From: an uncultured Thiotrichales bacterium
Lineage (GTDB): Bacteria > Pseudomonadota > Gammaproteobacteria > UWMA-0217
Length of the DNA stretch: 64,000 nt
Direction: 5' to 3'
Assembly (NCBI GenBank): GCA_964613895.1
Contig: CAZTJP010000001.1
Coordinates: 5,386 to 69,385 of the forward strand
Shown: piece by piece, positions 29,961 to 40,286 of the stretch
How positions within the stretch are numbered: position 1 is the first letter of the stretch
Layout of the letters: every line of letters begins with the position of its first letter
Translations under genes and position numbers: made by a program
Notes under the pieces: generated by a model
What the model was told of the DNA's origin: nothing
Database searches by the model: none
What the model saw: the letters and a program-made list of their open reading frames with translations, nothing else

Positions 29961-30494
29961 ATGAACCCGAATGCTTCAGTGAGGACAAAGAGGATCGCTG
30001 TCAGAAGCGCATGGCTGGCAGCCCTACTGCTCACGGAAAGCCTGTTCGCGGCAGACAGTGGGGTGACGCCCCCTAGCGTCCCGACGTTGACGCTCCCCGA
30101 GCGCTTTGGCCAGGCATTGGAACAGGCCGCCGCAGCAGGTACTGCCGTCGATATATCCAGCGCGTTGACCGGAGTGAATGGTTTGGCCAGCGGTTCGATC
30201 AATCACGTACAAGGCGATGTCAGCCTCTCGAACACCCCTCAAGCCCTGCAACAGGATCAGCTCACCCAGGTTATCGCCAGCAGCCAGATGAGCGCCAGCG
30301 TCGTCAACAATTCGACCACCATCGGCGTGGCGGATAGCGGCTACCGTGCAACCAATACGCTCGGCGCCGCATTCGCCAGCCACCAAGGGGCAGTCACGGT
30401 CAGCCAGTCCGCAGGCATCTCCAACACGATATCCCAGGCCATCACCTTTCAGGTTGGGCTAGACCTCAACGCGCCCTCACCCTCGGCTCAGTGA
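29961..30494 (+). CDS. secreted hypothetical protein, Ala/Ser/Thr/Gly-rich, with N-terminal signal peptide
   Basis: GGAGGA 6 nt upstream of the ATG; MNPNASVRTKRIAVRSAWLAALLLTESLFA|ADSG signal-peptide-like N-terminus; mature part low-complexity (SSALTGVNGLASGS..., SQSAGISNTISQAITFQ); no recognisable domain. Confidence 0.6.
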   Translation: MNPNASVRTKRIAVRSAWLAALLLTESLFAADSGVTPPSVPTLTLPERFGQALEQAAAAGTAVDISSALTGVNGLASGSINHVQGDVSLSNTPQALQQDQLTQVIASSQMSASVVNNSTTIGVADSGYRATNTLGAAFASHQGAVTVSQSAGISNTISQAITFQVGLDLNAPSPSAQ

Positions 30495-30675
30495 CAAAGT
30501 AGCTGTCATACCGTTCTTAGAAGTGGGTGGTATTTACATCCTGCCACACAGAAGCCTGGTTTTCGGGAGATTTTGGTCAGCAACGAGTATATACTTGTCG
30601 GCCGCGATGTTGCCTCGTTGATAGAACGCGTTCCTGTGTTTGGATTTTGACGAAAACCCACCCATACGGTAAAGG

Positions 30676-31500
30676 ATGACTTCGACAACGAAAACGACGT
30701 TTTTCGCGCTGGTTCGAGATCTGTTCGAATACCGCCAGCTACTGACCCAGATGATCCGCCGAGAGATTATCGGGCGTTATCGGGGGTCAGTGCTCGGGCT
30801 GGCCTGGTCCTTTTTCAATCCCTTGCTGATGTTACTGGTCTACACCTTCGTTTTTTCGGTGGTGTTCAAGGCGCGCTGGGGATTGCCCGAGGATCAGGGG
30901 AAGGTCAGTTATGCGACGATCCTGTTCACAGGAATGATCGTGCATGGGCTGTTTGCCGAGTGTATCAATCGAGCACCAGGACTGGTTTTGGCAAACCCAA
31001 GTTATGTCAAGAAGGTGGTATTCCCCCTGCAAATATTGCCGTGGGTCAGCATGGGGGCCGCGTTCTTCCATGCAATGGTCAGTGTGCTGATCCTTGTTAT
31101 CGCTATTTTGTTTCTCAACGGATCGTTATCGATCACAGTCATCTTTTTGCCACTGGTCCTTTTTCCGCTCATTGTCGCAACCATGGGAGTAAGCTGGTTT
31201 CTGGCATCGACCGGTGTGTATTTGCGTGATATTGGCCAAACGGTTGGATTACTGACAACAATACTGTTGTTTCTTTCTCCAGTATTCTTTCCTGTGTCAG
31301 CGTTGCCGCCCAGATTCCAGACCATCATGATGTTGAACCCGCTGACATTTATCATTGAGCAGTCACGGAATGTCCTGCTTTGGGGTAAGGGCCCTGACTG
31401 GATCGGGCTGTTCGTCTACACACTATTGAGTGCTGGGGTCGCTTGGGCGGGATACTACTGGTTCCAGAAGACGCGCAAGGGTTTTGCTGATGTCTTGTGA
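30676..31500 (+). CDS. wzm: ABC-2 type polysaccharide export permease (Wzm/KpsM-like)
   Basis: 274 aa, 6 predicted TM; N-terminal amphipathic helix REIIGRYRGSVLGLAWSFFNPLLMLLVYTFVFSVVFK typical of Wzm/TagG. Confidence 0.85.
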   Translation: MTSTTKTTFFALVRDLFEYRQLLTQMIRREIIGRYRGSVLGLAWSFFNPLLMLLVYTFVFSVVFKARWGLPEDQGKVSYATILFTGMIVHGLFAECINRAPGLVLANPSYVKKVVFPLQILPWVSMGAAFFHAMVSVLILVIAILFLNGSLSITVIFLPLVLFPLIVATMGVSWFLASTGVYLRDIGQTVGLLTTILLFLSPVFFPVSALPPRFQTIMMLNPLTFIIEQSRNVLLWGKGPDWIGLFVYTLLSAGVAWAGYYWFQKTRKGFADVL

Positions 31501-38240: not shown

Positions 38241-38264
38241 TGAGAAAAGAGAGGGGTAGCGAAG

Positions 38265-40286
38265 ATGAAGAGAATAAAGAAGCTTCGGGTGTCATTCCTG
38301 TTCTTTGTGCTTTCCTATCTCAGCCTGGTTGTCTTGGGATGGTATCTGGATGAGGATGTGGCAGGAGAGTGGGGGGGCTGGGGGCGTGTCGCAGGTGCAA
38401 TAGTCTCCGCAGCCCTGCTTTGGTATCCGCTCTATCTGGCTTCTGTTAACCGTATTCTGCTGGCACTCGTTTCGGGTTTCATGACATTGCTGATTACGGT
38501 AAAGATTTACTATACCCAGATATTGGGTGTGCACATAGAGCCTACGGTGTTCGAAGGTATGTTCGACACCAGTCCAGAAGAGATGGCGCGTTTGGGATCC
38601 TACAAGCCACTGTTATTATTCTTGGTGTTCTTTTTCTATGTCATAATCATTCTGGAATTTGGTTGGTTGAGGTCTCATCCTTTAAAACGTCGTTTATTGT
38701 TTCATACCGCAAAATTGTCTGGTATTACGGTGCTCGTGGTCGCCATATTGGTCGGTAGTGGCATCAGCGTGTGGAGTGCCACGAATTTGCTCGAATCGAT
38801 TTTCCCATTAGACTTTCTGCAAAACTTTTATACAGCAGTTTCGGCACGATATCGTTTATATTTGGCTAATCGTGATCGAGAATCCTTATTGGGTAGGTAC
38901 GAATTTATACGGAAGGAATCTGATCCGGTAACTGTGGTCGTCGTGCGAGGTGAGTCTTTAAGAGCACGTTCGTTCCCGATCAATGATGCGAGATTTCCCA
39001 AGGATCTACGTTTGTCCGGGATCAACAATACTGTTTATCTCAACAACGTTTTTTCCTATGCCAACTATACCCAGGCAGCAGTTCCATGGATGCTGGTCCG
39101 AAGTATCGATGATCATTTGTTGAATGAAAAATCGTTTATTTCCGTAGTCCGGGGGAAAGGTTTTGATACCACTTGGCTTGGGTGTGATAGTTCAAACGTT
39201 GCCGGTTTCGCAGTTCCCATTGTGAATTTTTCTTTCGAGGCTCACAGGTCTCTTTTTACAGGTAAATTGAACGACTGGCTGAAACAGCATGACTCAGATG
39301 AATTGTCGATGTTAACAGGACCCCCATTCCATGATGATCGGCAATTCAAATATCTGCTTGCAACGTTGATGGAAGACAATCAACGTAATCGTTTTTTCTG
39401 GGTGGAAATGAATGGGTCCCATGTACCGTGGGCCGGATTCGATTCGGCATATCGTTACGCAGAGCCGATCTGTCACCAACCGTTGGATGAAGTACGCGCC
39501 TGTAGCGAACAGGCGGCAGTCAATGCTTACAATAGTACTGTTCTGGCCACGCAGCATCTGCTACGCCGCTTGATCGGGGTGCTCAAATCGAGGAATGCAG
39601 TCGTGATTTTTGCGTCCGATCATGGAGAAAGTACTGGTGAGGACGGTTTTTATGGCCATGGGTTCATGCTTCCGAAAGGGAGCCGGAGAATTCGGGATCA
39701 AATCAACCCCGCTTTTATGGTGTGGATGAGCGATCGTTTCAGGCAGAATTACCCTGAGCGGTTTATCGCCTTGATGAAGAATGCTGATGCTTATATGACT
39801 CATGATGTGATCTTTCATTCTGTTCTTGACTTGTTGGGTTTTGAGTCTGAGGTGATCGATAAGCGGCGCAGTATTTTTTCGGATTCGTTCGTTTCAAGGC
39901 AGCCATTCGTGGACGTTGAATATCAAGAAAAAGGAGTGGTTGTCGTCGATGAGGGATATGATCATTTGTTCCTTTCCGTTTCCAGTGATGTGCACGATAC
40001 GTCTTTTAGTCTCGTGATGAAGTTTCGGGGGAAGGGAAACCCGATCCGGGTTTCCCTGGTGGCTGACAAGGGTCAATCCAAATGGCGTTATCGGTTACGT
40101 CAGTCGAATCAGCCTGCTGCACAGGGGGAGTTGGGGGCAGGTGAAAGTGCTTCAGTGGTGATTGGCTTGACCGACTCACGATCCTTGGAGTTGATATTGT
40201 TGCCTCAAGAGAGTGATGGCAGAGCAAGAGCAAAGTTTGATTTGACCGTGAGTCGGTTACCCGCTTCGAACCACGAAGCCAAGTGA
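38265..40286 (+). CDS. phosphoethanolamine-transferase-like membrane protein (EptA/MCR/OpgE sulfatase-fold family) with ~120-aa C-terminal extension
   Basis: 673 aa. N-terminal ~190 aa have ~5 TM helices. The periplasmic alkaline-phosphatase-fold domain has the metal-binding block VVIFASDHGESTGEDGFYGHGF followed by PAFMVWMSD...THDVIFHSVLDLLGF, closely matching the EptA/MCR-1 pattern (SDHGESLGENG...PAFFW...THD). Residues ~555-673 have no counterpart in EptA-type enzymes. Confidence 0.75.
   Translation: MKRIKKLRVSFLFFVLSYLSLVVLGWYLDEDVAGEWGGWGRVAGAIVSAALLWYPLYLASVNRILLALVSGFMTLLITVKIYYTQILGVHIEPTVFEGMFDTSPEEMARLGSYKPLLLFLVFFFYVIIILEFGWLRSHPLKRRLLFHTAKLSGITVLVVAILVGSGISVWSATNLLESIFPLDFLQNFYTAVSARYRLYLANRDRESLLGRYEFIRKESDPVTVVVVRGESLRARSFPINDARFPKDLRLSGINNTVYLNNVFSYANYTQAAVPWMLVRSIDDHLLNEKSFISVVRGKGFDTTWLGCDSSNVAGFAVPIVNFSFEAHRSLFTGKLNDWLKQHDSDELSMLTGPPFHDDRQFKYLLATLMEDNQRNRFFWVEMNGSHVPWAGFDSAYRYAEPICHQPLDEVRACSEQAAVNAYNSTVLATQHLLRRLIGVLKSRNAVVIFASDHGESTGEDGFYGHGFMLPKGSRRIRDQINPAFMVWMSDRFRQNYPERFIALMKNADAYMTHDVIFHSVLDLLGFESEVIDKRRSIFSDSFVSRQPFVDVEYQEKGVVVVDEGYDHLFLSVSSDVHDTSFSLVMKFRGKGNPIRVSLVADKGQSKWRYRLRQSNQPAAQGELGAGESASVVIGLTDSRSLELILLPQESDGRARAKFDLTVSRLPASNHEAK

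Follow-up and report, generated by a model that had tools for sequence, protein, structure and literature searches.

A surface-polysaccharide locus with two tandem wzt genes in an uncultured Thiotrichales bacterium, a probable recombinant of two ABC-transporter cassettes

O-antigen loci diversify by the swapping of biosynthetic cassettes, and cap-dependent export through an ATP-binding cassette (ABC) transporter needs a matching recognition domain. The N- and C-terminal parts of the ATPase Wzt are reportedly separable, with serotype specificity said by the Whitfield laboratory to reside in the C-terminal carbohydrate-binding domain (CBD). The WbdD-WbdA systems of Escherichia coli O9a/O8 (Klebsiella pneumoniae O3/O5) combine an ABC-dependent O-polysaccharide (O-PS), a terminus-specific Wzt C-terminal domain and a chain length set by a coiled-coil protein, and in these respects the locus described here resembles them; they differ from it in having one wzt per locus, a terminator (kinase and/or methyltransferase) separate from the polymerase and no EptA-like gene. 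The proteins WbbB of K. pneumoniae O12 and ORF6 of O7 carry the terminator distally on a coiled coil, with the polymerase glycosyltransferase (GT) modules at the opposite end, and O7 supplies a further GT as a separate protein (PMC11231755). The locus examined here lies at positions 30676–40286 of a 64-kb stretch of contig CAZTJP010000001.1 (assembly GCA_964613895.1) from an uncultured Thiotrichales bacterium, hereafter the window, and is composed of six genes named wzm, wzt1, wzt2, GT927, GT386 and ept. It is an ABC-transporter-dependent surface-polysaccharide locus whose product is predicted to be, most likely, a lipopolysaccharide O-antigen. The locus is probably a recombinant of two cassettes, in which a foreign biosynthesis cassette with its own ATPase has been placed behind resident transporter genes.

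The kind of locus is ordinary, namely a polysaccharide module that depends on an ABC transporter, is gated by a chain cap and follows the coiled-coil polymerase-terminator plan. As with WbbB of O12 and of Raoultella terrigena and with ORF6 of O7, one protein of the window (GT927) follows directly after wzm-wzt and is composed of an N-terminal module, a helical spacer and a predicted C-terminal polymerase, it is accompanied by a stand-alone GT as in O7, and the Wzt proteins carry a CBD, implying cap-gated export. An earlier note, made from the letters of the window alone, had described this architecture as unlike the classic systems; the succession of N-terminal module, coiled coil and C-terminal GT together with a stand-alone GT is in fact the O12 WbbB/O7 format (PMC11231755). 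The differences lie in the modules themselves. The N-terminal module of the window protein is a GT-B fold of GT family 4 (GT4) type, unlike the GT99 β-Kdo transferase of O12 and the methyltransferase-kinase of O7, and the polymerase modules are TuaH-like GT-B domains, unlike the polymerase types of O12 and O7; the predicted terminator role derives from position and from co-variation with the CBD. GT4 profile and fold matches show that the N-terminal domain is not of the GT99 type, and GT927 is not a WbbB orthologue. Three features of the locus are unusual, namely the tandem Wzt proteins with unrelated recognition domains, a GT4 domain at the terminator position and a rare clade of Ept proteins bearing a β-sandwich. 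The known pathway framework is unchanged by these findings.

The first gene of the module, wzm (30676..31500, forward strand), encodes an ABC-2 permease that matches ABC2_membrane (PF01061, E 7.5e-25, profile positions 3–210 of 211). It is followed on the same strand by wzt1 (31490..32818) and, after a 156-nt spacer, by wzt2 (32975..34303, alternative start 32897), each encoding an ATPase with a C-terminal CBD. Both ATPases match ABC_tran (E about 1e-23 each) and Wzt_C (wzt1 92.0 bits, E 4.5e-26; wzt2 91.4 bits, E 6.8e-26; cutoff 30.4), and both are intact in the Walker A, signature, Walker B and H-loop motifs (GRNGxGKST, YSSGM, ILIVDEAL and VTHS). The two proteins are 44% identical overall, 56% within the nucleotide-binding domain (NBD) and 28% over the linker and CBD, so that the initial description of a Wzm with two Wzt ATPases of different C-terminal binding domains stands. 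No tandem wzt was found at any of the 29 other loci with a wzt NBD that were returned by the related-loci and context look-ups. A literature search for two Wzt proteins gave a single result, an incidental mention without analysis of two wzt in Massilia violaceinigra (PMC9834719).

The transporter genes and the remainder of the locus have different closest relatives. At the amino acid level Wzm is 72% and 70% identical to its counterparts in loci L087 and L089, against 51% and 53% for L002 and L083 (48–56% over the four GT4-type cassettes L002, L083, L084 and L085). Wzt1 follows the same pattern, with 66% and 67% identity to L087 and L089 and 43% and 41% to L002 and L083, and the nucleotide sequence from 30704 to 32256, covering wzm and the wzt1 NBD, is 70% identical to L087. 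Wzt2 shows the opposite affinity, with 67% and 68% identity to L002 and L083 and 43% to L087. These affinities extend through both domains of each protein: Wzt1 matches the Wzt of L087/L089 at 72–75% in the NBD and 56% in the CBD, and its CBD is 21–22% identical to that of the cassette-type Wzt proteins, while Wzt2 matches the single Wzt of L002/L083 at 80% in the NBD and 52–56% in the CBD, and its CBD is 19–22% identical to that of L087/L089. The products of GT927, GT386 and ept are 47–53% identical to those of L002/L083. The spacer upstream of wzt2 may contain a relic of the 3' end of the wzm of the incoming cassette (32915..32971, forward strand, immediately 5' of wzt2), as its translation GGGIQRLYGWVGFVLKKTR matches the C-terminus of the L083 Wzm, GGALLVAWLGFAWFQKTR, at 45% over 20 aa (E 0.1 in a 400-nt search) and in a collinear position.

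Base composition divides the locus in the same place. Windowed GC content is 0.44–0.52 over 30.5–40.3 kb, compared with 0.53–0.64 outside, and the genes of the flanks have a GC content at third codon positions (GC3) of 0.62–0.77 and a codon adaptation index (CAI) of 0.60–0.77. The values for wzm (GC3 0.63, CAI 0.51) and wzt1 (GC3 0.55, CAI 0.54) are intermediate, and those for wzt2, GT927, GT386 and ept are uniformly low (GC3 0.47–0.50, with wzt2 at 0.47; CAI 0.45–0.49). The per-gene shift thus has two steps, the first at wzm/wzt1 and the second from wzt2 to ept. The earlier note had called the block AT-richer than flanking genes of 60% GC or more, consistent with horizontal acquisition. The block is indeed at 44–52% GC and the CAI agrees, with GC, GC3 and CAI all differing from the flanks rather than being uniform with them, but the figure for the flanks was too high, since the left flank is at 53–59% GC.

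The identity of wzt1 to L087 (~66%), that of wzt2 to L002/L083 (~67–68%) and the composition steps together indicate that the window joins a wzm-wzt1 pair of resident type, like that of L087, to the 3' portion of a cassette like that of L002. Two wzt genes would stand in tandem because the incoming cassette replaced the resident GT genes yet kept its own Wzt. That a resident Wzm should work with an imported Wzt is plausible given the separability of the Wzt domains, and a resident origin of wzm-wzt1 is the most parsimonious reading.

The cassette to which wzt2 belongs is conserved elsewhere. L002 and L083 share the order wzm, a single wzt, a GT of 927–935 aa, a GT of 374–376 aa and a sulfatase-fold protein of 672–694 aa, and in both the cassette lies inside a full O-PS-type locus. 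Genes for a sugar dehydrogenase, an epimerase and a GT2 are located upstream (L002 additionally has an NTP transferase and further epimerases), and downstream are genes matching Glycos_transf_4 (WecA-like) and Polysacc_synt_2 (WbpM-like); in L002, L083 and L091 alike, the WecA-like Glycos_transf_4 gene comes after the homologous cassette. The scanned open reading frames (ORFs) of the window yielded no initiating transferase, nucleotide-sugar gene or ligase, in agreement with the first impression of an elongation, termination and export module whose initiation and precursor genes are absent. The initiating transferase and ligase functions must be encoded elsewhere in the genome. There are hints that the products of the cassette family are ManNAc (N-acetylmannosamine)- or uronic-acid-containing, teichuronic-acid-like polymers. 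A UDP-GlcNAc 2-epimerase gene (Epimerase_2) is found by the polymerase genes of L084 (13293–14393), L085 (12777–13874) and L093 (7353–8489). A UDP-sugar dehydrogenase gene is located upstream of the L002 and L083 cassettes, and the window has neither this gene nor Epimerase_2.

The least certain part of this reading concerns Wzt1, which is either a still-intact leftover or the ATPase of a second glycan encoded outside the window. A further explanation is that both Wzt proteins are in use with the one Wzm, as a Wzt1/Wzt2 heterodimer or as alternative homodimers, so that two differently capped glycans, the product of the locus and a second one encoded elsewhere, leave through one channel, or the transporter recognises two epitopes on a single glycan. 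Neither gene is truncated, the ATPase motifs and Wzt_C domains of both are intact, and wzt1 is without visible decay; at 56% identity the two NBDs could plausibly dock on the same Wzm; and the tandem is recovered in two assemblies, a Logan contig (L175, run SRR33214773) spanning 30477–33943 at 99.94% and including wzm, wzt1, the spacer and most of wzt2. However, neither the locus nor the scanned ORFs of the window contain a terminator that matches the Wzt1 CBD type, which in L087 is partnered by a methyltransferase-headed protein. Furthermore, the absence of paired wzt genes from all 29 of the other loci compared indicates that the tandem is not a conserved design, and the two-step composition points to a recent junction instead of a co-evolved pair. 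Joint use is for these reasons considered rather unlikely, and the exchange of a cassette behind resident transporter genes is preferred.

The chromosomal site also bears on this exchange. The queuosine gene queF (40289..40678, reverse strand; QueF-II, E 2.6e-53) forms the conserved right-hand edge of the variable locus. The closest relative found is L087 (GCA_054037895.1), located via the wzt1 search, whose Smc and QueF proteins are 95% and 90% identical to those of the window. Nucleotide identity to L087 (81%) begins at 40294, exactly at the end of queF, and runs into smc. L087 carries a different wzm/wzt cluster adjoining queF-smc, in the order of a WbpM-like gene, wzm, wzt, a 1303-aa protein, a 361-aa GT, a methyltransferase, a GDPGP1-like gene, a membrane sulfatase-family gene, queF and smc. 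The 1303-aa partner protein has a methyltransferase N-terminus followed by GT-B and GT2 domains. Since L087 already has a wzm/wzt cluster at queF-smc, the site is a variable polysaccharide locus with exchangeable content and not a new insertion. The membrane sulfatase-family gene beside queF in L087 (18520–20076, reverse strand) encodes 518 aa with a Pfam Sulfatase match (E 3e-17). It was considered as an orthologue of the window ept and rejected, no similarity being detected; the L087 and window cassettes may have recruited periplasmic phospho-transferases independently.

On the other side, the closest match to dxs among species-representative genomes is 73% identical and belongs to a Thiotrichales metagenome-assembled genome. 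The order dxs-queD-folE2 is kept in eight relatives (L003, L004, L005, L007, L008, L009, L017 and L026), and none of these has queF, smc or wzm upstream of dxs within the available sequence of about 0.4 to 10 kb. In all five relatives inspected (L003, L004, L007, L008 and L017), the gene directly upstream of dxs is ispA. By gene order, the dxs side is a synteny break specific to this genome. The dxs of the window (27836–29960 with its upstream region) is not preceded by ispA, and a genome rearrangement thus falls at the left edge of the locus.

These observations decide against a single acquired island, extending from orf177 (the ORF preceding wzm) or from wzm to ept, inserted between dxs-queD-folE2 and queF and acquiring wzt2 by local duplication. 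The low GC content over the whole 30.5–40.3 kb, the queuosine/pterin genes on both sides and the synteny break at the left edge, where relatives have ispA upstream of dxs, all favour such an island, and the earlier note had pictured it as an insert splitting a contiguous queuosine/pterin gene set. The synteny comparison does not support that picture, as in more distant relatives ispA and not queF lies by dxs, queF being beside dxs in none of the relatives checked, and as L087 already has its own wzm/wzt cluster at queF-smc. Recent local duplication of wzt1 is rejected because wzt1 and wzt2 are each closer to another locus (66–68%) than to each other (44%). GC3 and CAI differ between wzm-wzt1 and wzt2-ept, and orf177 is native in composition, leaving a single island very improbable. 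That the tandem is a metagenome assembly chimera, two strains' O-PS cassettes having been joined at the conserved wzt NBD, is hardly credible even though the window is a metagenomic contig (matching ENA ERZ27262647:k141_527166), O-antigen loci vary among strains and the two NBD regions are similar, because a join within the NBD would yield one hybrid gene rather than two complete genes and a 156-nt spacer, the Logan contig reproduces the region, and NCBI and JGI contigs as long as 72 kb have proteins of the locus on record as well.

On the recombination reading, the imported part includes the predicted polymerase genes. The gene GT927 (34300..37083, forward strand) encodes 927 aa that comprise a GT4-type GT-B domain, a long helix and a TuaH-like GT-B domain. 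Pfam and NCBIfam searches identified Glyco_transf_4 (E 1.7e-25) and Glyco_trans_1_4 at the N-terminus and a TuaH-like GT at residues 666–910. The AlphaFold model (mean pLDDT 87) contains GT-B folds at residues 1–350 and 570–927, an uninterrupted helix at 400–482 and shorter helices to residue 544. The top Foldseek matches are the retaining GT4 enzymes BshA, MshA and PglA; a PDB sequence search gave generic GT4 matches only, and neither search revealed a donor sugar or linkage. On the forward strand of the window the N-terminal GT4 domain, a candidate chain terminator, corresponds to 34300–35349, the long helix, a putative coiled-coil ruler, to 35497–35745, and the C-terminal domain, the predicted polymerase module, to 36007–37083. 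An alignment of 26 family members shows conserved N-terminal and C-terminal GT-B domains flanking a centre that differs greatly in length among the members and contains repeated units (ERDGQI..LNQAVAE). All 26 members have an invariant S-x-x-W-R-x-T-x-P-x-R motif, in which S484 and W487 are invariant, at the start of a segment seen in both alignment and model (conserved SWRxTxPLR motif and helices, residues 484–544, forward strand). We know of no described function for this motif, which may be a membrane-docking or partner-docking element. It is positioned directly after the long helix (GT927 residues 484–497, window 35749–35790), and it is also found in the methyltransferase-headed homologue of L091 (4398–4440).

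The GT927 family gene is located directly after wzt in L002, L083, L084 (Vandammella) and L085 (Lampropedia), and ~300 nt after wzt in the Moorella locus L086. The L091 homologue has a methyltransferase over its first 230 residues and then a coiled-coil-like stretch in place of the GT4 domain, and is 50% identical to GT927 from residue 481 to the end; the L091 orthologues of GT386 and Ept are 46% and 52% identical to those of the window. The Wzt2 CBD is 56, 52, 38 and 40% identical to the CBDs of the four GT4-headed loci and 18% identical to that of the methyltransferase-headed L091. As judged from these alignments, the kind of CBD that a Wzt carries goes with the module that heads the long-helix protein, a GT4 or a methyltransferase, and not with the polymerase. 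Because of this module swap and the co-variation of the CBD, the N-terminal GT4 domain of GT927 is assigned as the putative terminator. The helix is the putative ruler.

The next gene, GT386 (37080..38240, forward strand), encodes a stand-alone GT of 386 aa that is a paralogue of the C-terminal domain of GT927, with 29% identity to residues 702–911 (E 1e-15) and a TuaH-like match in NCBIfam (E 9e-14). Its orthologues in L002, L083, L084 and L091 are 46–49% identical, and it is predicted to be a second polymerase or an adaptor GT. The profile searches, the AlphaFold model and the paralogy alignment bear out the preliminary identification of a GT4-coiled-coil-GT protein, a paralogous GT and an EptA-fold enzyme.

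The last gene of the locus, ept (38265..40286, forward strand), encodes this EptA-fold enzyme, a predicted phospho-alcohol transferase of 673 aa. Pfam identified Sulfatase (E 1.4e-22) and EptA_B_N (E 4e-5, 23.9 bits against a cutoff of 22.3), and the best NCBIfam match was P_eth_NH2_trans at 133.6 bits against a cutoff of 500, with all equivalogs far below their cutoffs. The protein is divided into a transmembrane part (residues 1–203), a catalytic part (220–530) and a clade-specific, all-β C-terminal part (551–664), for which the AlphaFold model (pLDDT 80) has ~10 β-strands. Its top Foldseek match is full-length NmEptA (5FGN, TMt 0.65, 570 columns), and MCR-1 was also matched. Like EptA, EptB, EptC (CptA) and MCR, it combines a helical membrane domain with a periplasmic catalytic domain and has a Thr nucleophile and Glu/Asp/His metal ligands: E230, T269, H386, D452, H453 and H465 are invariant with classical EptA and align with the GET, T280 and SDHGES of NmEptA. 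Unlike EptA and MCR, to which it is 21–25% identical in the alignment, it is ~130 residues longer and ends in a β-sandwich. A BLAST search of 5.8 billion sequences found 14 other clusters at identities of at least 42%, the next matches being classical EptA at 23–28%. By sequence the ept protein is thus placed in a distinct clade of the EptA/MCR superfamily and is not predicted to be an EptA equivalog. At each of the six places looked at, the window and five other contexts, ept follows the polymerase genes of a wzm/wzt cluster; for one of these contexts (L093) the contig begins at wzt, so that wzm lies beyond the visible sequence.

As EptA-type enzymes have their active site in the periplasm, the ept protein cannot be the cytoplasmic chain terminator. 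By analogy, it most likely decorates the exported polymer with phosphoethanolamine or another phospho-alcohol, and because this rare clade is found only in wzm/wzt clusters, the polymer is a more probable acceptor than lipid A; both donor and acceptor are inferred. A search of a literature collection found no paper in it that ties an EptA-like gene to a wzm/wzt O-PS cluster. Streptococcal rhamnose polysaccharides are ABC-exported, and GacH of these Gram-positive bacteria is LtaS-like. GacH is a cluster-encoded sulfatase-fold phospho-alcohol transferase of these polysaccharides, and the window enzyme is similar to the glycerol-phosphate transferases GacH and SccH in being a membrane-anchored alkaline-phosphatase/sulfatase-fold enzyme that is encoded within a polysaccharide cluster and would transfer a phospho-alcohol from a membrane lipid on the extracytoplasmic side (bioRxiv 10.1101/337519). 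It is unlike GacH in that its sequence and fold are EptA/MCR-like (5FGN) and in its extra C-terminal β-sandwich.

Several points weigh against the recombinant reading or against parts of it. No mobility gene (transposase or integrase ORF), tRNA or flanking repeat was found at the exchange. The search for edge repeats returned short chance-level matches only, with no insertion sequence (IS) or att-like repeats, direct or inverted. The wzm relic 5' of wzt2 is, at E 0.1, a statistically weak hint. The identity of wzm and wzt1 to L087 is 66–72% at the amino acid level, compared with 90–95% for queF and smc, and with this divergence above that of the flanking genes, "resident" may mean of the same type only, with no vertical descent implied. 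The search gave a single close relative, L087, whose visible smc covers 222 residues. The sequences and models establish the domain content, the mixed ancestry, the conserved cassette, the co-variation of the CBD with the N-terminal module and the intact catalytic residues, and the functions of all cassette members are predictions: the N-terminal GT4 domain of GT927 could instead be a polymerase or adaptor module, and no GT4 chain terminator with a characterised precedent was found; the pairing of its helix as a coiled coil derives from a monomer model and sequence repeats; and the ept protein could act on lipid A or the core. The pathway that partners Wzt1 may also lie beyond the 64-kb window. 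As to mechanism, the exchange has the look of a homologous or illegitimate recombination event within a locus for polysaccharide synthesis. Regulatory sequences gave little further information, as the promoter/terminator scan of 29600–40900 returned counts at or below shuffle expectation and hence no operon information, the Rfam search of 29000–41500 returned no family at threshold, and the ops/JUMPstart core GGCGGTAG is absent near the locus, two copies at ~12.3 kb being within chance.

In the predicted mechanism, an undecaprenyl-phosphate-linked primer would be made by an initiating transferase encoded elsewhere and lengthened at the cytoplasmic face by the C-terminal GT-B module of GT927 and by GT386. 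The GT4 module of GT927 would be kept off the polymerase by the ~83-residue helix, presumed to be a coiled coil, and would cap those chains that are sufficiently long. The CBD of Wzt2 would then bind the cap added by GT4, and Wzm and Wzt2 would export the chain. In the periplasm, the EptA-fold enzyme would take phosphoethanolamine, or a different phospho-alcohol, from a membrane phospholipid and add it to the exported polymer, which its β-sandwich may hold, and ligation would come last. The locus appears to catch an export-compatibility problem in the course of being solved, with a cassette that kept its own Wzt behind a resident wzm-wzt. It bears on the natural use of Wzm with a foreign Wzt and offers a candidate GT4-type terminator, and the rare ept clade may add charged phospho-alcohols to O-polysaccharides, which bears on antimicrobial-peptide resistance and on phage and immune recognition. 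A bolder proposal, which we regard as speculative and doubtful, is that the locus encodes a natural hybrid transporter, in which one resident Wzm serves two Wzt proteins with unrelated cap recognition and thereby lets a cell switch or co-export O-polysaccharides after an exchange of cassettes while staying able to export, that the ept clade (670–700 aa, with a β-sandwich like a carbohydrate-binding module) is a periplasmic phosphoethanolamine or phospho-alcohol transferase dedicated to ABC-exported Gram-negative glycans, and that the GT4 domain is a new type of terminator.

The ORF listing of the window has seven co-directional ORFs at 29961–40286, and the earlier note had counted all seven as one island. 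This grouping applies to six of them (30676–40286), which are split into two blocks of different origin, and does not extend to the first. That ORF, orf177 (29961..30494, forward strand), lies outside the glycan module and encodes a small protein of 177 aa that is rich in S, T, A, Q and N and has a signal-peptide-like N-terminus. Its GC content (0.61) and GC3 (0.71) are native-like. No Pfam match was obtained, and the match to the amyloid subunit FapB was weak (22.6 bits, cutoff 190). A search of 1.8 billion representative proteins gave just one further cluster (P0284, 45% identity), and the other wzm/wzt loci in the comparison (L002 and L083–L093) lack orf177. This putatively secreted Ser/Thr-rich protein, at first taken for a member of the block, is excluded from the module because of its native composition, its near-orphan status and its absence from the related cassettes.

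Profile searches of the flanking genes identified rpoA, a LysR regulator, a methyltransferase, folE2, queD and dxs to the left of the locus and queF, smc, zipA and ligA to the right. The other scanned ORFs of the window are core genes, among them rpoB, rpoC, fusA, tuf, secY, pyruvate dehydrogenase and mla. The window also contains two EF-G paralogues (7883–9997 and 48736–50814), one of which is the fusA of the str operon; the second copy is located downstream of ligA and a SIMPL-family gene.

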